From: Vicinamibacterales bacterium
GTDB taxonomy: Bacteria > Acidobacteriota > Vicinamibacteria > Vicinamibacterales > 2-12-FULL-66-21
Length of the DNA: 63,547 nt
Direction of reading: 5' to 3'
Assembly (NCBI GenBank): GCA_051986585.1
Contig: JBPYFA010000293.1
Location: 1-63,547, forward strand
In this document: positions 25,695-62,800 of the stretch, in pieces
Layout of the letters: the number at the start of each line of letters is the position of its first letter
Position numbering within the stretch: position 1 is the first letter of the stretch
Translations under genes and position numbers: made by a program
The notes under the pieces: generated by a model
Seen by the model: the letters and a program-made list of their open reading frames with translations, nothing else
What the model was told of the DNA's origin: nothing
Database searches by the model: none

Positions 25695-26855
25695 CTACGC
25701 GCTTGCCCGCCATCGCAGATGGGCCAGGCAGACGGCCATCAGTACGGCGCCAACGCTGACCACGCCCAAGTGCATCAGATGTGTATAGAGCGATCGATGA
25801 AGCAGGTCGAAGATGGTGAAACTGGTGAAGAAGAAGCCGGTCAGCGCGACGGCGCGCCAGGCTGGCGTGAGATCGTGCCACCGATCGACGAGGCACATGT
25901 ACGCGGGCATCGCGATCACCAGCACGTAGTCCCAGCCCTGTGGCGACAAGAGCGGCATCAGCACCAGGAAATAGGCGACATCGAGATAGTTCGGTTCGGG
26001 CACTCGCCGTCCTTCGAACACTACAGCAATCCCCACCGCGACGGCGGCCGCCGACGAGGCAAGCGCGAGGGCTCCGGCGGTCGGGCCCGGTGCGATCCAT
26101 TTCGCCCACATCGACGCGAACGAGATGTTCTCGGGGCCCATCAGGTTGGGACCTGTCGTTGTTGTGACGGTGCGATACCATTCATGCAGCAGCGTTACGT
26201 TGCCATTCCATCCGTACCACGCCGCTGGCAGCAGCAGCCCGCCGGCCAGCACCAGACCAAATGAAACGAGGGAACGCCACCCCAATCGCCATGCGAGCCA
26301 GGGCAAGAGAAGCAGCGGGTACGGTTTCACGAATACTGCCGCCGCAACCAGGCCGCCGGCCGTCATCACCCGGCGGTGCTGGGCCGCGATCACCGCTCCG
26401 ACGACCAGCAGCGCCAGCGGCAGGTTGAACTGTCCGAGCGCCAGCTCCTTTACCAGAAACTTGCCGTTTAAGAGCAGCGTGAGCCCGAGCAGTGTCGCCG
26501 CCGCCATCCTTCGGTCGGGCAACGCCGCGAGCGACAGCCGCAGGAGTGCCCAGGTCATCGCGACGGTGAGCGTGAACCAGGTGACCTCCGCAACTTCCTT
26601 CGGCATCCGGGTAAACGGCACCATCGCCAGGGCGAACGCAGGGAAATACTTGTATTGATAGTGACCGTCCTCGGGCCGGTAGAGCGGTTCGTGTGCGAGG
26701 AACCGTACCGCTGTCCGACGGGGTACGGCGAAGTCGACAAGTTCAGTGCGCTTCAAACGGAGCAGACCGTAGAGACTCAAAACGATGAGGGTGAAGACGA
26801 GGGGCCGTACGATCAAGCCCAGGCGCGACGGCACCCACCGAGGGTAACATTTCAA
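25695..26855 (-). CDS. DUF2029/GT87-like polytopic membrane glycosyltransferase (paralog B)
   Basis: It has blocks LYRPEDGHYQYKYFPAFAL, VFVKPYPL and LSPQGWDYVLV. Its stop abuts the start of paralog A. The track start at 26855 is TTG inside a heptamer repeat; GTG 26834 is an alternative. Confidence 0.7.
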   Translation of the reverse strand: MKCYPRWVPSRLGLIVRPLVFTLIVLSLYGLLRLKRTELVDFAVPRRTAVRFLAHEPLYRPEDGHYQYKYFPAFALAMVPFTRMPKEVAEVTWFTLTVAMTWALLRLSLAALPDRRMAAATLLGLTLLLNGKFLVKELALGQFNLPLALLVVGAVIAAQHRRVMTAGGLVAAAVFVKPYPLLLLPWLAWRLGWRSLVSFGLVLAGGLLLPAAWYGWNGNVTLLHEWYRTVTTTTGPNLMGPENISFASMWAKWIAPGPTAGALALASSAAAVAVGIAVVFEGRRVPEPNYLDVAYFLVLMPLLSPQGWDYVLVIAMPAYMCLVDRWHDLTPAWRAVALTGFFFTSFTIFDLLHRSLYTHLMHLGVVSVGAVLMAVCLAHLRWRASA

Positions 26856-26885
26856 TGCTCAATGTTGAATGCTCAATGCTCAATG
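26851..26885. repeat. heptanucleotide tandem repeat (CTCAATG-like x5) in the GT87/GT9 divergent region
   Basis: The units are TTCAATG CTCAATG TTGAATG CTCAATG CTCAATG. The tract is AT-rich relative to the genome and overlaps the annotated TTG start of paralog B. Confidence 0.9.
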
Positions 26886-26918
26886 TCTAGCGTCGTGACA
26901 GAATGATGCGGCGGTATC

Positions 26919-50749: not shown

Positions 50750-53365
50750 TTGGTGTGGTCTCTGATCCCAGACGGAGGGTGCGTGCGCGCGTTTCTGGTC
50801 GCTTTTATCCTGTTGTTTGCGCTCGCGATCGCCGGCTCTGCCCAGCGAGCGCAGCAAGACGCCATTGCACCAGTCGCGCAGCTTCCAACGCCTAGCGCTT
50901 CGGCCCCCGCCACCAAGGATTCGCCGGCATCCAAAGAGCCCAAAGAGACGGTCGAGGGTTTCGACAACCTCATTCGGCCCTTCGTCTCCGAGAATTGCTT
51001 TCCTTGCCACGGATACAAGAAACAAAAGAACGGGCTGAACCTCGAGTCGTTCGAATCGGCTGCCTCGCTGACCGACGAACACGAGCGATGGGCGGAAGTC
51101 GTCAAGAAGCTTCGCGCCAGAGAGATGCCTCCCGAGGAAGAGCGGCAGCCGTCTGAACATCAGCGACAGGCGGTCGCCGGCTGGCTGGCCAAGGAACTCG
51201 ATCGCATCGACAAGCTCACGCCGCCCGATCCGGGCAGGGTGACGGCCCGCCGTCTGAATCGCACCGAGTACAACAACACGGTCCGCGATCTTCTCGGCGT
51301 CGACATGCGGCCCGCCGACGATTTCCCGCAGGACGATGCCGGATACGGGTTCGACAACATTGCGGACGTCCTGTCGTTGTCGCCGGTGTTGATGGAAAAG
51401 TACGTGTCGGCGGCGGAGAAAGTGTCGCGGGTGGCGCTGTTCGGTCCGCCGATCTTGAAGCCGACGCTGACGCGCCTTCGTTCGGATGGCCGACGCGTGC
51501 GCGAGGCGAAGACGTTTCCTGGCGACTACGACGTTACGGGACTCAGCCTGCCGAATGCGTTTCACGCGATGTATCGCGTCCCCGTCGATGGGGAGTACGT
51601 CGTTCGAGTTGCGCTTGCCGGGTTACGGCCCGCGGGCTCCGAACCGATCTCCGTGACGTTGTGGGTCGACGATCACCTGCTGCAGACGATCCCATTCGAT
51701 CTCGAGCGTTCGGCGACGTTCAACGACGATCGCCAGGATTTCGGTGGGCAGATGGTGGAGTTCCGGGCGAAGCTCACGCAGGGCGACCGGCATCTCGCCG
51801 TCGCTATTCCGCGAATTTTCGAAGGACTTCCGGCGAGTTTCAACGGTCCGCAGCCGTCAACACGCCCCACTCCGCCGCCGCGCGAATTCAAGCCACCGCC
51901 GAATGCGACGCCCGAGCGGATCGCGCAACTGAAGAAGATGTTCGACGACACGCAAGCCGAACTGGCGAAGATCCCGATGAACGGTGTGCGCATCAACACG
52001 CTCGACATCGGCGGACCGTACTCGCAGACGACCGGGCCGACGCGCGCGAGCCTGCAACGGATTTACACGTGCGGCCATCTAAATGGCGTTCACACGCCGA
52101 TGTGTGCGCGCCGGGTCGTCACCGATTTCGCGCGACGCGCCTTCCGGCGCCCAGTCAGCGCGGCAGAACTGGCGCCGTACATCAAGTTGACCGAGCAGGC
52201 GGAGAAGGAAGAAGGCTCGCTGGCGGAAGGGCTCGCGATCGGGATTCAGGCAATCCTCGTGTCGCCAGACTTTCTGTTCCGGATCGAACGCGACCGCGCG
52301 CCTGCCGGAGCAAAACCGGCGGCACACTATCCGATTTCTCAGCACGAGCTCGCCTCACGCCTGTCCTACTTCCTCTGGTCCAGCATGCCCGACGCCGAGC
52401 TGCGACGAGCTGCCGATCTGGGAACCCTGCGGAATCCTGCAGTCTTGACGGCGCAGATCCGGCGAATGCTGCGCGACCCCAAGGCGAATGCGCTGGCGGA
52501 GAATTTCGGTGGCCAGTGGCTGCAGTTCCGCGCGCTCGAATCGGTGACGCGCGATCGCGATCGGTATCCGGATTTTGAAGACTACCTGCGCTTCTCGATG
52601 CGGCGGGAGACGGAGCTTTTTGTCGAGGACGTCATCCACCAGGATCGCAAGATTCTGGACTTCATCGATGGCAACTACTCGTTCCTCAACGAGCGGCTCG
52701 CGCGGCACTACGGTGTGGCGGATGTCTCGGGTCCCGAGTTCCGACGCGTCGATTTGAGCGACACGCCCAGGGCCGGCGTGCTGACTCAGGCGAGCGTGCT
52801 GACCGTCTCGTCGTATGCCACCCGCACGTCGCCGGTGCTGCGAGGACGATGGGTGCTCGACAACCTGCTCGATGCGCCGCCGCCCGAGCCGCCACCCGAT
52901 GTTCCGAACCTCAATGAATCCGAGATCGGTACGGCGGCCTCGATGCGCGAGCAGCTGGAGCAGCATCGGAAGGACCCGACCTGTGCCGCCTGCCACCGCC
53001 GGATGGATCCGCTCGGCTTCGGTCTCGAGAATTTCGATGCGATCGGCGCGTGGCGCACGATCGACGGTAAGTTCCCCATCGATGCGACGGGGACGCTGCC
53101 AGACGGGCGCAAATTCAATGGGCCGCAGGAGCTCCGGAACATCCTGCGAGCCGATCACCAGGCATTCGAACATTGCCTGACGGCGAAGCTTCTCACCTAC
53201 GCGCTCGGCCGCGGGCTGGAGCGCTACGACAAGAGGACGGTCAGCGGGATCGTCAGTCGACTGCCGGAGCACCAATACCGGTTCTCGGGACTGATTCTGG
53301 AAATCGTCAACAGCCTGCCCTTCCAGTCGCGAAGGGCCGCGATCACTGCGAGCACAACACCATGA
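50750..53365 (+). CDS. DUF1592/DUF1588/DUF1585-family protein with N-terminal planctomycete-type cytochrome c (CxxCH) module
   Basis: The signal peptide is followed by a heme-binding-type CFPCHGYKKQKNGLNLES motif. Later blocks are FLWSSMPDAELR, NFGGQWLQFR and DPTCAACHRRMDPLGFGLENFDAIG. The GTG start is uncertain. Confidence 0.8.
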   Translation: MVWSLIPDGGCVRAFLVAFILLFALAIAGSAQRAQQDAIAPVAQLPTPSASAPATKDSPASKEPKETVEGFDNLIRPFVSENCFPCHGYKKQKNGLNLESFESAASLTDEHERWAEVVKKLRAREMPPEEERQPSEHQRQAVAGWLAKELDRIDKLTPPDPGRVTARRLNRTEYNNTVRDLLGVDMRPADDFPQDDAGYGFDNIADVLSLSPVLMEKYVSAAEKVSRVALFGPPILKPTLTRLRSDGRRVREAKTFPGDYDVTGLSLPNAFHAMYRVPVDGEYVVRVALAGLRPAGSEPISVTLWVDDHLLQTIPFDLERSATFNDDRQDFGGQMVEFRAKLTQGDRHLAVAIPRIFEGLPASFNGPQPSTRPTPPPREFKPPPNATPERIAQLKKMFDDTQAELAKIPMNGVRINTLDIGGPYSQTTGPTRASLQRIYTCGHLNGVHTPMCARRVVTDFARRAFRRPVSAAELAPYIKLTEQAEKEEGSLAEGLAIGIQAILVSPDFLFRIERDRAPAGAKPAAHYPISQHELASRLSYFLWSSMPDAELRRAADLGTLRNPAVLTAQIRRMLRDPKANALAENFGGQWLQFRALESVTRDRDRYPDFEDYLRFSMRRETELFVEDVIHQDRKILDFIDGNYSFLNERLARHYGVADVSGPEFRRVDLSDTPRAGVLTQASVLTVSSYATRTSPVLRGRWVLDNLLDAPPPEPPPDVPNLNESEIGTAASMREQLEQHRKDPTCAACHRRMDPLGFGLENFDAIGAWRTIDGKFPIDATGTLPDGRKFNGPQELRNILRADHQAFEHCLTAKLLTYALGRGLERYDKRTVSGIVSRLPEHQYRFSGLILEIVNSLPFQSRRAAITASTTP

Positions 53366-54708
53366 TGCTTACCCGCACACACCTGCCGCGCCGCTCCTTT
53401 CTCAAGGGAATGGGGGCGGTCATTGCGCTGCCGATGCTCGATGCGATGACCCCCGCGTTGGCGGCCGCGCGGGCACAGTCGCGCCCGGTCCGGCTCGGCT
53501 TCACCTACGTGCCCAACGGCATCACCATGCCCGACTGGACGCCGAAGGGCGGTGGCGCCGAGTTCGAGTTCGCGCGCGTCATGAAGCCGCTCGAACCATT
53601 CCGGCAGGACATGGTCGTGCTCTCGGGCCTTGGCCATCGAAACGGCCAGGCGCTTGGCGACGGCCCAGGCGATCACGCGCGTGCCGCGGCGTCGTACCTC
53701 ACTGGCGTACACCCACGCAAAACCGCCGGGGCTGACATTCAGAACGGCATCTCGGTCGATCAAGTGGCGGCACAGCAGATCGGCGCCGCGACACGGTTTG
53801 CGTCACTCGAGCTCGGGTGCGACGATTCACGGACGATCGGCAACTGTGATTCCGGGTATTCGTGCGCGTACACGAACAGCCTGGCCTGGCGCGGACCAGC
53901 CACGCCGATGCCGCCGGAAACGAACCCCCGGCTCGTCTTCGAACGCCTGTTCGGCGACATTGACACCAGCGTGCCGGCCGACGTGCGCGCGCGGCGCCTC
54001 ATGTACCGCCGCAGCATTCTGGATCTCGTCAACGAGCGAACGACCAAGCTGGCGTCGACCCTCGGTCCGGTGGATCGACGAAAGCTGGATGAGTATCTGA
54101 CCTCGATTCGCGAGATCGAGCAGCGGATCGAAAAAGCCGAGAAGGACATGACCGGCCTGGTGCCGACGATCGACAAGCCGAGCGGTGTGCCGGTCGTCTA
54201 CGCCGACTACGTCAATTTGATGTTCGATCTGCAGCTGATCGCGTTCCAAGCCGATCAGACTCGGATCGTGACGATGATGATGGGCCGTGAAGGGAGCATG
54301 CGCACTTACCCGGAGATCGGTGTTCCCGATCCGCATCATCCGCTGACACACCACCGAGGCAACGTCGAATGGATCGAGCGTGTGACCAAGGTCAACACAC
54401 ATCACATGGAGCTGTTCGCCGGGTTCATCAAGAAGATGAAGGAGACGCCCGATGGCGACGGCTCTCTCCTCGATCATTCGATCATCGTCTACGGCAGCGG
54501 CCTCAGCGACGGCAACCGCCATATCCACGAGGACCTGCCAGTGGTGCTCCTGGGGCACGGCGGCGACTTCCGCCTCGGCAACCACATCGTCTATCCGAAG
54601 GGCACGCCGATGACCAACCTGTATCTGACGCTGCTCGATCGAATGGGCGTGCAAGAGGAGACGATCGGCGACAGCACGGGAAGGATCGAGCATCTGACGG
54701 ATCTGTAG
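53362..54708 (+). CDS. DUF1552 domain protein (Tat signal)
   Basis: ATG 53362 overlaps the upstream stop (ATGA). MMLTRTHLPRRSFLKGMGAVIALPMLDAM carries the RRSFLK twin-arginine motif. The sulfatase-like blocks HHPLTHH and DLPVVLLGHGG are present. Confidence 0.8.
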   Translation: MMLTRTHLPRRSFLKGMGAVIALPMLDAMTPALAAARAQSRPVRLGFTYVPNGITMPDWTPKGGGAEFEFARVMKPLEPFRQDMVVLSGLGHRNGQALGDGPGDHARAAASYLTGVHPRKTAGADIQNGISVDQVAAQQIGAATRFASLELGCDDSRTIGNCDSGYSCAYTNSLAWRGPATPMPPETNPRLVFERLFGDIDTSVPADVRARRLMYRRSILDLVNERTTKLASTLGPVDRRKLDEYLTSIREIEQRIEKAEKDMTGLVPTIDKPSGVPVVYADYVNLMFDLQLIAFQADQTRIVTMMMGREGSMRTYPEIGVPDPHHPLTHHRGNVEWIERVTKVNTHHMELFAGFIKKMKETPDGDGSLLDHSIIVYGSGLSDGNRHIHEDLPVVLLGHGGDFRLGNHIVYPKGTPMTNLYLTLLDRMGVQEETIGDSTGRIEHLTDL

Positions 54709-54731
54709 CCGGCTAATCGCGTTGTTCGAAC

Positions 54732-54794
54732 GAACCACGAACCAAAAACATCAAACCACAACCGAGAACATAAAACCAAAAACCAAGAACTGAC
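54732..54794. repeat. A+C-rich tract with 7-nt periodicity (about 9 degenerate AACCNNN units)
   Basis: The units are GAACCAC GAACCAA AAACATC AAACCAC AACCGAG AACATAA AACCAAA AACCAAG AACTGAC. AAC recurs at 7-nt intervals with one 6-nt slip. There are only 3 T in about 70 nt. The tract lies upstream of rhaM. Confidence 0.85.
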
Positions 54795-54835
54795 CACCAG
54801 TTTACCGTCACGTTCCAATTCGAGCTTTTGCCAAC

Positions 54836-55153
54836 ATGCGCAAAGCGTTTCGAATGTCGGTTCACCCCGGTGAGGAGGCGGAGTACATCCGCCGGCATCA
54901 GCCAATCTGGCAGGAGCTCGAGCGGACGCTTCTCGAGCATGGCGTGCACACCTACTCAATCTTTCTAGATCGCGGTACGAACCATCTGTTCGGGTACGTC
55001 GAGTTCGAAAGCGAGGCGCAGTGGAACGCGATCGCTGCGACGGATGTGTGCCAGCGCTGGTGGTCGCACATGCGCGACGTGATGCCGACCAATCCTGATC
55101 ACAGCCCGGTCAGCGTCGCGCTCGAAGAGGTATTTCATATCGAACATCCGTGA
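54836..55153 (+). CDS. rhaM: L-rhamnose mutarotase
   Basis: [45 protein letters not shown]...[26 protein letters not shown] is the RhaM/YiiL pattern. Confidence 0.9.
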
Positions 55154-55168
55154 CTTGTCGAAAGAGAC

Positions 55169-55227
55169 AACAGGAGAAAGGAGAACGGAGAACATACTAT
55201 TTATTCTCCTTTCTCTTTTCTCCTGTT
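55169..55227. terminator. 24-bp imperfect polypurine/polypyrimidine hairpin built from 7-nt units, after rhaM
   Basis: AACAGGAGAAAGGAGAACGGAGAA (55169-55192) pairs with TTCTCCTTTCTCTTTTCTCCTGTT (55204-55227), with 22 of 24 positions complementary. The arm contains GAGAAAG GAGAACG GAGAACA. Confidence 0.6.
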
Positions 55228-55249
55228 AATCTCGTGGCTTGATCGCAGC

Positions 55250-56002
55250 GTGACAGTGAATGCCGTTGAATTGAGAACTGGGCTGGAAGCTGGGAGCTGG
55301 AAGCTGGCAGCTGTCAAGATCGAAGTCATCGTCCAAACGGTCGCCGACGCGCGCGCTGCGACCGACGGGGGAGCCGACCGTCTCGAGGTCGTCCGTTCGA
55401 TGCGCGATGGCGGGCTGACGCCATCGTTCGCTGTGGTCGAGGAGATCAAGCGCGCGACTTCGTTGCCACTGCGGGTGATGGTTCGCGAAAACGCCGGGTT
55501 CGAGACCTCTAACGCGGAGATCGAAATCATGAGGGCGGCGGCGTGGAGCTTCACGAAGCTTGGCGTCGACGGGCTGGTGGTCGGCTTTGCGAAATCGGGG
55601 GAACTCTCGCTCGCCGAATTCGGGAACGTCATCGAAGCGGCTCCCGGCCTACCCATCACGTTCCATCGCGCGTTCGACTCGCTCAGCGATCCACTCGGCG
55701 CAATTGACCGGTTGTCCGCCAATCCACGGATCGATGGCATTCTGACGAGCGGCGGTGAAGGAACAGCCGCGGAGCGGTGCGCGCGACTTCGTGACTACGT
55801 CTCGCGCGCACGTTCGCGACTGACGATCATCGCGGGCGGCGGCGTCGACCAGGAAAGCTTTCGGTTGTTGGTTGAGGATGGCGCCGTCGAGTGGATCCAT
55901 GTCGGCCGCGCCGCACGCGACGGCGTCGACGCCGAGGGCCCCGTCTCCGCCATCAGCGTGCGGCGGCTGCGGAACCGTGCGAGGGACCTTGGCTCTTGTT
56001 AG
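55250..56002 (+). CDS. cutC: copper homeostasis protein CutC
   Basis: KIEVIVQTVADARAATDGGADRLEVV...GLTPS...ITFHRAFD is the CutC TIM-barrel pattern. The start is unresolved: GTG 55250/55256, TTG 55271 or CTG 55304. The first ~20 codons of the track ORF run through a heptamer repeat. Confidence 0.8.
   Translation: MTVNAVELRTGLEAGSWKLAAVKIEVIVQTVADARAATDGGADRLEVVRSMRDGGLTPSFAVVEEIKRATSLPLRVMVRENAGFETSNAEIEIMRAAAWSFTKLGVDGLVVGFAKSGELSLAEFGNVIEAAPGLPITFHRAFDSLSDPLGAIDRLSANPRIDGILTSGGEGTAAERCARLRDYVSRARSRLTIIAGGGVDQESFRLLVEDGAVEWIHVGRAARDGVDAEGPVSAISVRRLRNRARDLGSC
55276..55317. repeat. heptanucleotide tandem repeat (CTGGNAG x5)
   Basis: The units are (AACTGGG) CTGGAAG CTGGGAG CTGGAAG CTGGCAG CTGTCAA. 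It lies at the 5' end of cutC. Confidence 0.85.
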
Positions 56003-56020
56003 ACCAAGAGCCAAGGTCCC
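55983..56020. terminator. 16-bp perfect hairpin spanning the cutC stop codon (bidirectional terminator candidate)
   Basis: GGGACCTTGGCTCTTG (55983-55998), loop TTAGAC, CAAGAGCCAAGGTCCC (56005-56020). It lies between the convergent cutC and TonB-dependent receptor genes. Confidence 0.7.
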
Positions 56021-56056
56021 ATTTCAGCATTCAGAATTCAGCGTTCCACTTTTCAG
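56021..56056. repeat. heptanucleotide repeat (NNTTCAG x5)
   Basis: The units are ATTTCAG CATTCAG AATTCAG CGTTCCA CTTTTCAG. It abuts and overlaps the receptor stop codon (56053-56055). Confidence 0.85.
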
Positions 56057-59000
56057 AATCGTACCTTCACGCCGAGCTGGACCTGCCGCTCAGTCGTTCC
56101 GCACAGCGAACAAGACGGACTCGAGAGCATCGCCGTAATCGTGCCGCCGGCGGCGTTGTCGAACGTCGTGTTTGGATTGGCGAACTGCGGATGATTCAGG
56201 ACGTTGAACGCCTCCAGCCGGAACTCCGTCGCCAGCCTTCCGATCCTCGTGTTCTTAACCAGCGACGCGTCGATATTGAACGATCCGGGGCCGCGGATGA
56301 TGCCGCGCCCGGCGTCACCATAGGTTCCGGTGATGTCGGGCGTGCGCACGAAGCACGACGTGTCGAACCATTTGTCGATCGTCGGGTTTGAGAGGGTGCC
56401 GTCGCAGAGACGATTGGGCCGATTCCCGGTTCCTGTTGACTGCACGTTTTGCGTCTGGCTGATGGTCAGCGGTAGACCGCCGCGGAGGTACAGAATCCCG
56501 CTCAGCTGCCAGCCACCGTATAGCTTTTCCCTCGCCCACGGGAACTCGTATACCCAGCTCGACGAGAAGGTATGCCTCACGTCGTAATCAGATGGCCCCC
56601 AGTTGTATTGCAGGTCGTATGCGTTGGTGATACCCGACTCGTTATCCGACGCGTAGTCCATCGACTTGCCGAGCGTGTACGAGTTCAGGAACGAGAAGTT
56701 GTTTGCGAAGCGGCGTTGGAACTTCAGCAGCATCCCGTTGTAGTCAACTTTCCCGATGCTCTGTGCCTGGCTGACCGATCGGAGCAGCGGGTCAACCTTG
56801 ATGAACGGACGGTTGACATTCGCGTCGCTGACGCCGACGACCGGAGGCGCCTGGTTGACATCGACCTTGAGCACCATCTGCCTGCCCTGGGATCCAACAT
56901 AGGCGGCCTCCACCATGTAATTGGTGCCAAGGCCCCGCTGCACGTTGATATTCCATTGCCGGGCGTAGGCGTCCCGGAAGTTGACGTCGAAAGCTGATCG
57001 CGTGTTGCCGGCGGGGCTGGCGTTGGGGTTGACGCCCGTCGGCGTATCTAAGCCGGTTTTCATCAGTAGATCGGTGCCGTAGCTGCTCGGGTTGGGTGTG
57101 AGCGCTGTGGATTGCAGGAACGGCTGATTCTGCGCCTTTGACGACGAGGTGCCGCCGGGCGAGAAGTTCCAGAACACGCCGAAGCCTCCGCGGATGAGGG
57201 TCTTGCCCGTCCCATTCAGGTCGTAGGCAAAGCCGAAGCGAGGGCCGACGTTACCTTTCGAGTAGGTCTGCAAGTACCGGCCGACATGGATTCCACCTAT
57301 CTGCGCATTGTCGCTGGCGATCACGAATGCGCCGTTCGTCACGTCGAAATTCGATTGCCGGTCATCGACTTCGGTCCAGGGGGGATAGACGTCCCACCGC
57401 AGGCCGAGATTGACGGTCAGCCTGCTCGTCGTGCGCCAGTCGTCCTGCAGGTAGAGGGCGAACTCGGGACGTTTCTCCGTGTAGGTCAGGACCTCTCCGG
57501 ATTCGGTGATGCCGGAGAGATTGCGAATCTTCTGCGAGGTGAGGCCAAGGAGGAAACTGGCCACGTCAAAGCCGGTCGAGCTGTTGACAGTGCATCCGGC
57601 AGGTTGCCCGGCACAGTTCGACGTCTGGTTGTTGTTGAACTGGAACTGCCCGACGATGTTGTCGGCGTTCAGGACTTCGCGCGAGCGCAGGGTGAGGCTG
57701 CCACCGGCTTTCATGGTGTGCTTGCCGGCCGTCCTGGTCACGTTGTCGAACAGCTGATAGTCGTTCTGGTTGGTGATGAGCGGCTGATTGCTGTTGGCAC
57801 CGAGATTTCTGATGTTCTGGAAGGTGAGCTGCGTCATCGCCGAGGTGACCGGACTGAAATTGATGCCCGGGATTCCGACGGCCGCAGCCGGATTGGTGCC
57901 GTAATCGATCGATGTCATGTTGAATTTGATCGACGACCAGCCGAACCGAAACTCGTTGAGCAAGTTGGTGCTCAAGGTCTGTGTGTCGTTGATCGCCATG
58001 CTCTGCGCCTTGATGTTGCCGTCGCCGGCGCCGAACGTGGCACCGGCATCGCCGTGCGGCAAGGTTGCGGGCTGCAAACGGTGCGTCTTTTCAAAGCTGT
58101 AGCGGACGAAGAAGCGGTTGGTCGATGTCAGGTTGTGATCGACCTTCACGTCGAACTGGTTGTCCTGCCGCTCCTTGACGGGATTGATCAGGTAATTACT
58201 GATCGTTTGCCCGTTTGACGCCTGACGCGTGCCGGCCGTGTTCGGCTCCGGATAAAGCTGCGACAGGATGTTCTTGGCCACCGCGTCAATCCGATCCGCC
58301 GGAATGATGTTGCCGGGGAAGGGCTGGCCGGTCAGGGGATCATAGATGACGCGGGTCAACTCGCTGAAGTTGCCGCCGCGCATCGCAACCGACGGGACGG
58401 TCGACAGGAATGTCTGCCCCTGCCGCTCTCGATGGCCTTGGTAATCGCCGAAGAAGAACGTCTTGTCTTTGAAAATTGCGCCGCCCAGCGTGCCGCCGAA
58501 CTGGTTCTGCGAGAAGTCTGGCTTATCACGATGGGCGCGGTTGTTGAAGAAGTTATTGGCATCGAACGCGTCGTTCCGCATGAACTCGAATGCGCTGCCG
58601 CGCAGACTGTTGGTACCCGACTTGATTTGCAGGTTGACCACACCGCCAAGTGACCGGCCGAATTCGGCGGAATAGGTCGAGGTCTGCAGCTTGAACTCGT
58701 CAAGCGCGTCGACGCTCGGGAAAATCACGACCGTCTGCAGCCAGGTTTCGTTGTTATCGACGCCGTCGAGCATGAAATTGTTGTCGCGGGCGCGCTGGCC
58801 GTTGGCGGAGAACGACGCCGACGCGCGCCACGCAAGACTGCCCGCCCCGTCGATATTCGCGCCAGGAATTCCGCGGAGCACGCCTGGGAGCGTTCGCGTC
58901 AGGTTCACGAAGTTGCGGCCGTTAAGCGGCAGCGCTTCAATCTGTGCCGCCTGAACGGTCGTGCCCAGCTCAGAAGAGCTCGTTTGCAGCAGCGGGCTCG

Positions 59001-59394
59001 TCGCCTCGACGCTGACCGACTCCGTCATGGCGCCGACTTCCAGCTTCAGATCGACGCGGGCGCGCTGGTCGACGCCGAGTTCGAGGTTCGAGACGGTCAC
59101 GGTCTTGAACCCGGTGAGCTCCGCCATGACGGTGTAGTGGCCGGTTGGCAGCTGCGGCGCGGTGAACTCGCCATTCGAATCGGACTGCACGGTTTTCGTC
59201 AGACCGGTGCCTTCGTTGACGATGGTGACTTTGGCGTTGGGGATCACGGAACCGGACGTATCGGTCACCGTGCCGAGAATGGTCCCGCTGACCGTCTGAG
59301 CGACCGCCGTGAGCGGTACACAGACGGATGCGAACGCGAGTACGAGGAGAGTCCGTCGAAGCCTCCCGGGACACGAAATCACGCGCCTCATCAT
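56053..59394 (-). CDS. TonB-dependent receptor with N-terminal carboxypeptidase-regulatory-like domain
   Basis: A signal peptide is followed by QTVSGTILGTVTDTSGSVIPNAKVTIVNEGTGLTKTVQSDSNGEFTAPQLPTGHYTV. A plug block (LNGRNFVNL), a large beta-barrel and a terminal ...QLGVKVRF complete the protein. Confidence 0.9.
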   Translation of the reverse strand: MMRRVISCPGRLRRTLLVLAFASVCVPLTAVAQTVSGTILGTVTDTSGSVIPNAKVTIVNEGTGLTKTVQSDSNGEFTAPQLPTGHYTVMAELTGFKTVTVSNLELGVDQRARVDLKLEVGAMTESVSVEATSPLLQTSSSELGTTVQAAQIEALPLNGRNFVNLTRTLPGVLRGIPGANIDGAGSLAWRASASFSANGQRARDNNFMLDGVDNNETWLQTVVIFPSVDALDEFKLQTSTYSAEFGRSLGGVVNLQIKSGTNSLRGSAFEFMRNDAFDANNFFNNRAHRDKPDFSQNQFGGTLGGAIFKDKTFFFGDYQGHRERQGQTFLSTVPSVAMRGGNFSELTRVIYDPLTGQPFPGNIIPADRIDAVAKNILSQLYPEPNTAGTRQASNGQTISNYLINPVKERQDNQFDVKVDHNLTSTNRFFVRYSFEKTHRLQPATLPHGDAGATFGAGDGNIKAQSMAINDTQTLSTNLLNEFRFGWSSIKFNMTSIDYGTNPAAAVGIPGINFSPVTSAMTQLTFQNIRNLGANSNQPLITNQNDYQLFDNVTRTAGKHTMKAGGSLTLRSREVLNADNIVGQFQFNNNQTSNCAGQPAGCTVNSSTGFDVASFLLGLTSQKIRNLSGITESGEVLTYTEKRPEFALYLQDDWRTTSRLTVNLGLRWDVYPPWTEVDDRQSNFDVTNGAFVIASDNAQIGGIHVGRYLQTYSKGNVGPRFGFAYDLNGTGKTLIRGGFGVFWNFSPGGTSSSKAQNQPFLQSTALTPNPSSYGTDLLMKTGLDTPTGVNPNASPAGNTRSAFDVNFRDAYARQWNINVQRGLGTNYMVEAAYVGSQGRQMVLKVDVNQAPPVVGVSDANVNRPFIKVDPLLRSVSQAQSIGKVDYNGMLLKFQRRFANNFSFLNSYTLGKSMDYASDNESGITNAYDLQYNWGPSDYDVRHTFSSSWVYEFPWAREKLYGGWQLSGILYLRGGLPLTISQTQNVQSTGTGNRPNRLCDGTLSNPTIDKWFDTSCFVRTPDITGTYGDAGRGIIRGPGSFNIDASLVKNTRIGRLATEFRLEAFNVLNHPQFANPNTTFDNAAGGTITAMLSSPSCSLCGTTERQVQLGVKVRF

Positions 59395-61436: not shown

Positions 61437-61658
61437 CTTCCGCCTAAAGGCGGAAGCCACAGGTTGTGATTGTCTGGTGGTTCCCACTGTCTTGTGGCTT
61501 CCGCCATTAGAGGGTGGTGCCCTCTCTTTGTGGCTTCCGCCATTGAGAGGGTGGTGCCCTCTCTTTGTGGCTTCCGCCTTCGAGGCGGAAGATCAGGGTT
61601 CCCACTGTCTTGTGGCTTCCGCCTTTAGGCGGAAGATCAGTATGCGGAAGATCAGGGT
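61437..61658. repeat. cluster of REP-like hairpin elements (BIME-like array)
   Basis: An inverted copy, CTTCCGCCTAAAGGCGGAAGCCACAG, lies at 61437-61462. Four direct copies of TTGTGGCTTCCGCC start at 61492, 61528, 61565 and 61610. Two near-identical ~36-bp units carry the hairpin AGAGGGTGGTGCCCTCT. Complete hairpins are CTTCCGCC-TTCGA-GGCGGAAG and CTTCCGCC-TTTA-GGCGGAAG. GGAAGATCAGGGTT is repeated. Confidence 0.9.
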
Positions 61659-62604: not shown

Positions 62605-62657
62605 ACTAATCAGCGGCAGCTTTCACTGTCGAACTGAGACGTACTGACGGTGAACGT

Positions 62658-62733
62658 CGAAGATACGAAGGTACGAAGAATCGAAGATCAATAAGTCCTT
62701 TCTTCGGATCTTCGCTTTTTCGGATCTTCGATG
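62658..62733. repeat. inverted blocks of 8-nt units (CGAAGNNN x4 and complement) forming a long imperfect hairpin
   Basis: CGAAGATA CGAAGGTA CGAAGAAT CGAAGATC (62658-62689) is followed by CTTCGGAT CTTCGC..TTCGGAT CTTCGATG (62702-62733). It lies between the convergent hydrolase and asparaginase genes. Confidence 0.8.
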
Positions 62734-62759
62734 TGGTACCAAACCAAAACGAATAACCC

Positions 62760-62800
62760 AAAACCGAAAACCCAAAACCGAAAACCGAAAACCGAAAACG
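62760..62800. repeat. heptanucleotide tandem repeat (AAAACCG x6)
   Basis: The units are AAAACCG AAAACCC AAAACCG AAAACCG AAAACCG AAAACG. It ends 14 nt from the asparaginase stop. Confidence 0.9.

Follow-up and report, generated by a model that had tools for sequence, protein, structure and literature searches.

Around the genes rhaM and cutC, between positions 54732 and 56056 of the 63,547-nt window analysed here (the stretch of contig C293, JBPYFA010000293.1, of a draft Vicinamibacterales genome, G000), lie four tracts of degenerate 7-nt repeats. By their sequence, these tracts are local copies from a population of tandem arrays with short units that extends over the whole genome. We consider it likely that the arrays are foldback elements and their parts, with ends specific to each word family and with a full-length form that carries a PF05635 or GxxExxY gene, and that the four tracts are one small foldback and three solo arms. 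This reading draws on direct observations: a genome-wide excess of period 7, word families with their own ends, inverted pairs, placement relative to genes, turnover between species, the enclosure of particular genes, and the co-occurrence of genes and arrays across families of the order. The draft genome comprises 6.92 Mb in 599 contigs at 62.6% G+C, and the congeners with which we compared it belong to a genus with at least 19 sampled species.

A first-pass annotation of the window had described the four tracts and suggested a genome-wide scan for 7-nt periodicity as a check. That scan is positive, both in counts from Tandem Repeats Finder (TRF) and in autocorrelation against shuffled sequence. 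Run on the whole genome, and counting arrays of at least three copies, TRF reports 1,238 arrays of period 7, while periods 5, 6, 8, 9 and 10 yield 26, 158, 303, 225 and 171. The identity of intergenic bases at lags of 7, 14, 21 and 28 nt is 0.306, 0.292, 0.288 and 0.279, respectively, against 0.261 +/- 0.0005 (standard deviation) in shuffles. After overlaps are merged, 1,142 period-7 arrays remain, which cover about 63 kb, occur in 646 of 3,681 spacers, and make up about 9% of the DNA between gene calls. About 90% of the period-7 arrays are non-coding by our own gene calls, which are crude (codon log-odds trained on long open reading frames (ORFs); 88.8% coding).

The arrays use 164 canonical heptamer words, which collapse into families, including AATGCTG (125 arrays), AAACTGG (96), AATCAGC (77), AATCGCG (57), AATCGCT (55), AAGCTGG (55), AACCGCG (53), AAAAACC (45), and others. 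Earlier, each tract had been said to have its own word; this holds at the locus itself, but across the genome the words are drawn from a limited vocabulary, and all four tracts fall in these families. Nor are the spacers locus-specific, as had been supposed, because the families from which their words come are found throughout the genome and have conserved outer ends. The statement that no repeat family of this kind had been described must also be withdrawn: published heptamer repeats are known from Xanthomonas, cyanobacteria and Geobacter, as TAACTGA repeats, and as heptamer long simple-sequence repeats.

Spacers that hold two arrays are mostly foldbacks, in which a left arm is followed by a loop and then by a right arm that is its reverse complement. 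An inverted partner was found within 250 nt for 532 of 1,127 arrays (47%), compared with 71 (6%) in a control that used a random other unit, and about half of the arrays stand as solo arms. Each family has conserved outer ends, for example CTGAAAATGCTGAATG...CATTCAGCATTTTCAG, GTCAGTTTCCAGT...AACTGGCAACTGAC and GTCAGTTCTTGG...CCAAGAACTGAC, and the same asymmetric pair of arms, together with its outer ends, is common to foldbacks at 15-18 loci. Besides these family-specific ends, we found no conserved target-site motif beyond the arms. Loops measure 2 to about 130 nt, and some of them hold a G+C-rich hairpin. In families A to C and in the tract 1 family, conservation peaks at the outer ends of the arms and declines toward the loop, and the inner parts consist of locus-specific higher-order repeats.

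Arrays are placed unevenly with respect to genes. They are present in 26.7% of convergent, 17.6% of tandem and 10.4% of divergent spacers (by bases, 15%, 8% and 3%), and the 164 clean foldbacks comprise 56 in convergent, 101 in tandem and 7 in divergent spacers. Within tandem spacers, the array starts at a median of 7 nt past the upstream stop codon, and a median of 43 nt is left between its end and the next start. Many family ends include TGA, TAA or TAG, and some of them provide the stop codon of the upstream gene. Folding the 164 clean foldbacks gives a mean of about -64 kcal/mol for about 144 nt. In one ribosomal-protein operon (C335:680-12560), whose products resembling S7, L4, S8, L6 and L18 were recognised from sequence alone, foldbacks of the ACTGGAA/AGTTTCC family occupy nearly all intercistronic spacers.

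All four tracts claimed at rhaM and cutC are present where they had been placed, both in the sequence and in TRF output. Tract 1 (54730-54794, plus strand; TRF) is a solo right arm of the AACC-type family, family C, with the outer end AAAACCAAGAACTGAC. Nine AACCNNN units with 86% A+C had been reported for it, and positions 54732-54794 indeed consist of nine AACCNNN-type heptamers with 85.7% A+C. The left arm is absent; paired versions of family C have the GTCAGTTCTTGG...CCAAGAACTGAC ends given above. An ordered 45-nt block at the 3' side of the tract recurs in about 33 genome copies at 82-95% identity, and these copies share the same series of variant heptamers, ...AAACCACAACCGAKAACCNAAAACCNAAAACCAAGAACTGAC. 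Upstream of the shared block are 14-nt higher-order repeats that are specific to each locus.

Tract 2 (55157-55238, unstranded) is a complete small foldback, in which three GGAGAAN heptamers and their complement sit inside outer stems (fold -40.3 kcal/mol, z = -6.6). The purine/pyrimidine hairpin described at 55169-55227 is there, as a GGAGAAN purine arm followed by its complement. H-DNA, which had also been suggested, is rejected on the sequence: tract 2 is an inverted repeat (Watson-Crick complement) and not a mirror repeat, and the words of the other three tracts mix purines and pyrimidines. The tract can be aligned over about 110-130 nt to 20 copies from six congeners, an alignment that identifies it as a member of a nested palindrome of about 140 nt that is multi-copy in those congeners, with the consensus GTCACGCTGCGATC..AAGAGAnAACAGGAGAAAGGAGAAGGGAGAA-loop-TTCTCCTTTCTCYTTTCTCCTGTTnATCTCTT..GATCGCAGCGTGACAGTGAA and three heptamers per arm in every copy aligned; the stem is a fixed part of a defined, dispersed element and no free array. 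The same alignment places the right outer inverted repeat of the window's element, GATCGCAGCGTGACAGTGAA, at 55241-55260 (plus strand), while the left outer repeat, GTCACGCTGCGATC, is missing from the window copy. This family is rare in the source genome, where its outer repeat GATCGCAGCGTGAC has only 4 copies; in congeners the inverted ends GTCACGCTGCGATC and GATCGCAGCGTGAC are present on it. The outer flanks of the family showed no target duplication, and no transposase-bearing parent was found for it. In one congener (G001:C5; L096 9100-9900), an element of the tract 2 type together with about 80 nt of flank is tandemly repeated with a period of about 190 nt, in at least 4 copies.

Tract 3 (55276-55317, plus strand; TRF) is a solo arm of the AAGCTGG family, (GGAAGCT)n, whose 42 nt amount to 14 codons. 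The CTGGAAG-type heptamers noted there correspond to the (GCTGGAA)4.6 that TRF reports at 55282-55313, and the 55 arrays of the family are accompanied by about 100 BLAST pieces genome-wide. The tracts had been called intergenic spacers, a description that does not fully fit tract 3, which lies in frame within the 5' end of the cutC ORF. The cutC gene (55256-56002, plus strand) matches Pfam PF03932 from residue 22 of an ORF opening at 55250, and its start is GTG 55256 or TTG 55271. The CutC domain begins at about 55313. Every canonical start precedes tract 3, so translation probably takes in the heptamer arm, which would lengthen the N-terminal end of cutC by 14 codons. The candidate starts GTG 55250 and GTG 55256 fall within the right outer repeat GATCGCAGCGTGACAGTGAA of the tract 2 element. 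In L201, the single other strain available for comparison (near-identical, about 1.5% diverged, from a Joint Genome Institute metagenome), a 1-nt insertion shifts GTG 55250 out of frame, and GTG 55256 or TTG 55271 remain. In congener G018, the cutC start is a GTG directly ahead of the conserved block; the source genome seemingly has GTC near the matching place, as judged by eye from the two unaligned sequences. Most of the rhaM-cutC spacer (55154 to about 55317) consists of repeat elements, at 55157-55260 and 55276-55317.

A perfect 16-bp hairpin had been claimed ahead of tract 4, and we confirm it at 55983-56020 (unstranded; fold -34.2 kcal/mol, z = -6.8), with the stop codon of cutC (TAG, 56000-56002) in its loop. 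Congeners G007 and G014 have a hairpin at the same site with other stem sequences, and the stop codon is likewise in the loop; the hairpin is not present in G018, G006 or G005. Tract 4 itself (56021-56052, plus strand) is a solo right arm of family A (CATTCAG/AATGCTG, 125 arrays) that reaches the stop codon of the convergent outer-membrane-protein gene. For the TTCAG-containing heptamers listed at 56021-56056, TRF reports (TTCAGCA)3.4 at 56023-56046. The tract is nearly identical to the right arm of a foldback at C335:9694-9838, and it is placed beside a pre-existing hairpin. Most likely, none of the four tracts has a dedicated role for rhaM or cutC.

PF05635 is the S23p family of 23S rRNA intervening sequences, a four-helix bundle family that also contains Avd. 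The genome has seven PF05635 genes, and all seven lie between an array and its inverted complement; one of them makes up the "loop", 700 nt long, of a foldback of the AATGCTG family on contig C30. When the genome was scanned blind for genes that inverted arrays enclose, both of its GxxExxY genes (PF13366/TIGR04256; 2/2) were recovered, together with the single Y1_Tnp gene and one DUF5615 gene. Under an automatic test, 7 of the 9 PF05635 and GxxExxY genes are enclosed, compared with 23 of 1,623 genes of 80-250 amino acids (1.4%; binomial p ~4e-12). The arm words of these gene-carrying elements are those of the large families without cargo, including families with 8-, 9- and 10-nt units. The closest solved structure to one of the PF05635 proteins is the Xanthomonas S23p-family protein 2GSC. 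The DUF5615 gene (141 amino acids; C582:6187-6900) stands between inverted GGGGTTCTAC and GTAGAACCCC arrays, whose words match the arms of the PF05635 gene on C359.

The same layout is found in other genomes. Among 24 relatives, PF05635 genes are enclosed at about 27 of 30 loci; across the phylum, the automatic test finds enclosure at 18 of 26 loci, and arrays are visible at 23 of the 26. We also compared the presence of PF05635 with array density in 14 genomes of the order, sampling at least 40 kb of each. Per 100 kb, period-7 arrays number 0-2.6 in the five genomes that lack PF05635 and 5-25 in eight of the nine that have it (Fisher p = 0.003). In a tree of PF05635 proteins, those with similar arm words and periods group together. 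The orientation of the cargo gene against its conserved flanks is reversed in some species (L138 versus C471; L133 and L134 versus C359 and L130), which is the outcome expected of recombination between inverted arms. A retro-element origin, with PF05635 as the Avd-like partner of a reverse transcriptase, was considered and set aside, as RVT_1 has no match in the genome or in 24 of 31 relatives. In the searchable literature, we found no publication that reports PF05635 or GxxExxY genes within heptamer arrays.

The arrays turn over between species. The orthologous DUF1552-rhaM, rhaM-cutC and cutC-outer-membrane-protein spacers are short (17-50 nt) and repeat-free in G006, G007, G014 and G018. 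Other congeners hold different heptamer foldbacks there, for example TGATTGC/GCAATCA in G005, CCAGTTT/ACTGGCT in G009 and CAGCTGT in G010, and the cutC-outer-membrane-protein spacer (spacer 4) of G011 and G014 has related CAGCAAT arrays. In most congeners, 20-kb samples contain period-7 arrays. In strain L201, by comparison, tracts 1 and 3 are unchanged, and the stem of tract 2 has two substitutions, each of which improves pairing. The comparison of unit numbers at orthologous spacers that had been suggested therefore has a divided outcome, with complete turnover between congeners and no change of unit number in tracts 1-3 of L201: arrays stay stable at a divergence of about 1.5%, and their turnover is complete from one species to the next.

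We propose that the basic element would be a foldback, composed of an array, a variable loop and a reverse-complement array, with each word family having its own outer ends. The full-length element would hold a small gene in its loop, encoding either PF05635 (an S23p/Avd-like four-helix bundle) or GxxExxY (with a PD-(D/E)XK fold). Arrays would change in length through slipped-strand mispairing, and arms would recombine with each other. Spread would occur through some copying mechanism that acts on DNA without a reverse transcriptase, and copies would persist in 3' and intercistronic spacers, where they may be least harmful. As RNA, the arms would be expected to pair into long duplexes that RNase III could cut, by analogy with the intervening sequences of rRNA.

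Several observations weigh against this proposal. The loops of small foldbacks in families A, B and C are unrelated between copies, which makes a poor fit to simple copying of whole elements; taken with the conserved ends and the locus-specific inner repeats, they leave a pattern that no simple whole-element copying model explains. We saw no transposition event, no pair of empty and filled sites, and no target duplication, so mobility is deduced from shared sequence only. Unit number in tracts 1-3 is the same in the one near-identical strain, L201. Sense and antisense folds are equally stable (-64.5 versus -63.6 kcal/mol, p = 0.28), with similar numbers of G-U pairs (399 versus 389), and arm complementarity thus looks like a property of the DNA and not like the result of selection on one transcript. 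Selection on the structure of the sense-strand RNA was accordingly rejected as a candidate, there being no asymmetry in either fold energy or G-U pair counts. As for the cargo, genome G029 has six PF05635 genes yet few period-7 arrays (its arms have units of 9-11 nt), and G005 carries arrays although PF05635 was not detected in it. The presence of Y1_Tnp also correlates with arrays, more weakly (7/8 versus 1/6, p = 0.026), which means that the PF05635 correlation is not unique. Finally, most of the cargo elements correspond to one another across the genus as syntenic orthologues, and the arm word at one locus differs between species (TCGCGGT, GGGATCC or GGCTTCT), which indicates that the cargo protein does not dictate the word and that the copies are old residents, not recent movers. 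The idea that a cargo protein determines its own arm word is weakened in the same way, since the members of a clade in the protein tree are mostly such orthologues.

The proposal of foldback elements must be set against three other explanations. Under pure local slippage, each array would have arisen alone in its own spacer through a property of the replicase that favours 7-nt units, as Mrazek proposed, and would be neutral filler with no dispersal. Arrays do contain near-perfect 14-, 21- and 28-nt higher-order repeats typical of slippage or unequal exchange, their words and copy numbers differ at orthologous spacers of congeners, and in many phyla no long simple-sequence repeat is commoner than the heptamer (PMC4679880). 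However, the same ordered variant heptamers stand at about 33 loci, and independent slippage cannot be the source of a 45-nt block repeated in the same order so many times. Foldbacks at 15-18 loci with a common asymmetric arm pair and common outer ends, the grouping of words into few large families, and the near absence of period-7 arrays from relatives without PF05635 also speak against it, and we regard local slippage as an unlikely full account. The replication slippage suggested in the first-pass annotation is thus visible in the 14- and 21-nt repeats within arrays, but it does not extend to the shared block or the shared outer ends. Movement by a REP-associated tyrosine (Y1/HUH) transposase (RAYT) would make the arrays REP/REPIN-like elements, and they do resemble REPINs in being extragenic, in following stop codons, in forming inverted pairs, and in being depleted at promoter regions. 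The sole Y1/HUH transposase-like gene of the genome (Y1_Tnp, C552:1022-1624) is itself flanked by inverted 11-nt GGGTCAGACAC arrays (C552:890-1900), a layout like that of REP/RAYT systems, and the presence of Y1_Tnp tracks array density across genomes at the p = 0.026 given above. Yet the units are non-palindromic heptamers (AATGCTG, AACTGGC, AACCGAA), not palindromic REP hairpins; the GGGTCAGACAC family of the Y1 gene consists of only a handful of arrays; Y1_Tnp is absent from the array-rich G024, G013, G018 and G008; the Y1 protein scores 66.7 bits, below the NCBIfam REP_Tyr_transpos cut-off of 80; and a single enzyme would need to serve more than 20 unrelated words. We find this explanation improbable, and a RAYT is unlikely as the general mobiliser given its absence from array-rich relatives, its score below the cut-off and its small repeat family.

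The arrays might instead be spacers selected by the host, as bidirectional terminators, mRNA-stabilising stems, insulators, or arrays to which a regulator with a heptad register binds, and this we hold to be very improbable. The stems are very stable, at the mean of about -64 kcal/mol per 144 nt or so; arrays begin a median of 7 nt past stop codons and are enriched between convergent genes; and both substitutions in the tract 2 stem of L201 improve pairing. Against these stand the absence of U-tracts, the half or so of arrays that are solo arms and unable to fold, the orthologous spacers of congeners that are empty or hold other words, and the lack of strand asymmetry in folds. Foldbacks also fill nearly all spacers of the ribosomal-protein operon, where termination would be harmful. 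A scan for the intrinsic terminator consensus found one weak match at the tracts, on the minus strand inside tract 2, and none at tracts 1, 3 and 4, with total calls not above shuffles. Of the terminator or insulator function once suggested for the tracts, the position just past stop codons agrees; the missing U-tract, the solo arms and the array-free orthologous spacers do not. For the suggestion of protein-binding arrays, the enclosed PF05635 and GxxExxY proteins are candidate partners.

Cyanobacterial heptamer repeats (STRR) have already been described, and so have several other systems with which the arrays can be compared. According to the account of Mrazek et al. 2007 given in PMC4679880, many bacteria have heptamers as their commonest long simple-sequence repeats. 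Intergenic heptameric repeats with the words GGGAATC in Xanthomonas and GGGGAYT in Nostoc were reported by Rehm et al. 2015 (PMC4692102). The Xanthomonas repeats are about 90% intergenic, form 70-75 facing inverted pairs, lie near the upstream gene, occur in 16% of convergent versus 7-8% of divergent arrangements, and vary in length and sequence among close relatives (PMC4692102). The arrays studied here agree with them in having tandem 7-nt units, in being about 90% intergenic, in forming inverted pairs near the upstream gene, and in being commoner between convergent than between divergent genes. In contrast to the one G-rich word of Xanthomonas or Nostoc, there are more than 20 families here, at about 50% G+C, in addition to families with 8-11-nt units; G-quadruplex formation therefore cannot be the common denominator. 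Conserved family ends and gene-carrying full-length members also go beyond what the papers on these heptamer repeats report, and the host is a soil acidobacterium (Acidobacteriota, Vicinamibacterales).

TAACTGA direct repeats occur in marine Beggiatoaceae, cyanobacteria and Bacteroidetes (MacGregor 2015, PMC4679880), and Geobacter metallireducens has heptanucleotide "global regulator binding sites" in paired arrays (PMC2700814). Like these, the arrays here are short intergenic heptamer arrays near gene boundaries, including those of ribosomal-protein operons, and their words contain stop triplets. The Beggiatoaceae repeats have one word, mostly just upstream of starts and in forward orientation, whereas here there are many words, mostly just past stops, with no orientation rule. 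The likeness to REP/REPIN elements and RAYT lies in extragenic, hairpin-forming inverted pairs at gene 3' ends and in a RAYT-like gene flanked by its own inverted repeats; the differences are the non-palindromic tandem heptamers and the lack of a RAYT in several array-rich relatives. The intervening sequence of Coxiella contains a variable number of tandem GACAGAT heptamers beside an S23p ORF, and its 28-bp terminal stem is cut by RNase III (PMC4990558). As in ORF-bearing 23S rRNA intervening sequences (Coxiella burnetii, Leptospira), complementary termini here form a long stem around a PF05635 gene. The elements differ in standing between protein-coding genes and not in rRNA helices, in having arms of up to about 280 nt, and in that most copies, including all four tracts, have no ORF. 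Tract 2 shares the stem-forming termini of the intervening sequences, while tracts 1, 3 and 4 are solo arms with no partner.

A broader and more doubtful proposal, which we advance tentatively, is that arrays and foldbacks without genes, PF05635 and GxxExxY cassettes, and 23S rRNA intervening sequences are one class of hairpin element, whose cargo proteins make, maintain or move the arms. If this were true, it would explain the dominance of 7-nt units among bacterial long simple-sequence repeats, and the four tracts would be cargo-less relics or copies dependent on proteins supplied in trans.

The four tracts belong to a dense instance, in Vicinamibacterales, of a repeat kind that is published yet unexplained: intergenic heptamer arrays, often in inverted pairs. 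It has been known since 2007 that heptamers are over-represented in many bacterial genomes more than any other long tandem repeat, with no established mechanism. The present genome shows them with unusual density and clarity, as its arrays number about 1,100 and fall into more than 20 word families. With the enclosure of cargo genes, what was a curiosity of description becomes a hypothesis that can be tested on named candidate proteins, and heptamer repeats are tied to the ORF-bearing intervening sequences of rRNA, which are just as unexplained. The arrays also matter in practice. Arrays break assemblies, and many are located at the ends of the 599 contigs; they can provide stop codons and N-terminal extensions, as in the example of cutC; and they mislead the annotation of start codons and promoters.

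The genes next to the tracts were assigned by Pfam. A DUF1552 (HXXSHH) gene (53362-54708, plus strand; PF07586, 343 bits) has its stop 22 nt upstream of tract 1. It is followed by rhaM, encoding L-rhamnose mutarotase (54836-55153, plus strand; PF05336, 103.9 bits). Convergent to cutC is a gene for an outer-membrane beta-barrel protein with a CarboxypepD_reg domain, resembling TonB receptors (56053-59394, minus strand; PF25183, 803 bits). An Rfam search of the window found no family at gathering score, and the matches at the locus were microRNA-like and at chance level only.

Further repeats of the same general kind occur elsewhere in the window, all of them seen in TRF output and in the sequence. 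A heptamer array, (TCAATGC)5, at 26848-26886 (plus strand) lies in a short divergent spacer, an uncommon placement for such arrays. At 62653-62733 there is an unstranded octamer foldback, (CGAAGATA)n - loop - (TCTTCGGA)n, whose word is similar to that of the arms flanking the GxxExxY gene at C270. It is directly followed by a solo arm of family C, (AAAACCG)8.6, at 62741-62799 (plus strand); the stretch 62653-62799, between convergent genes, has the same build as the rhaM-cutC tracts. A repeat of a different, non-heptamer type is found at 61476-61585, where a 37-nt unit is present in 3 tandem copies with 89% identity.

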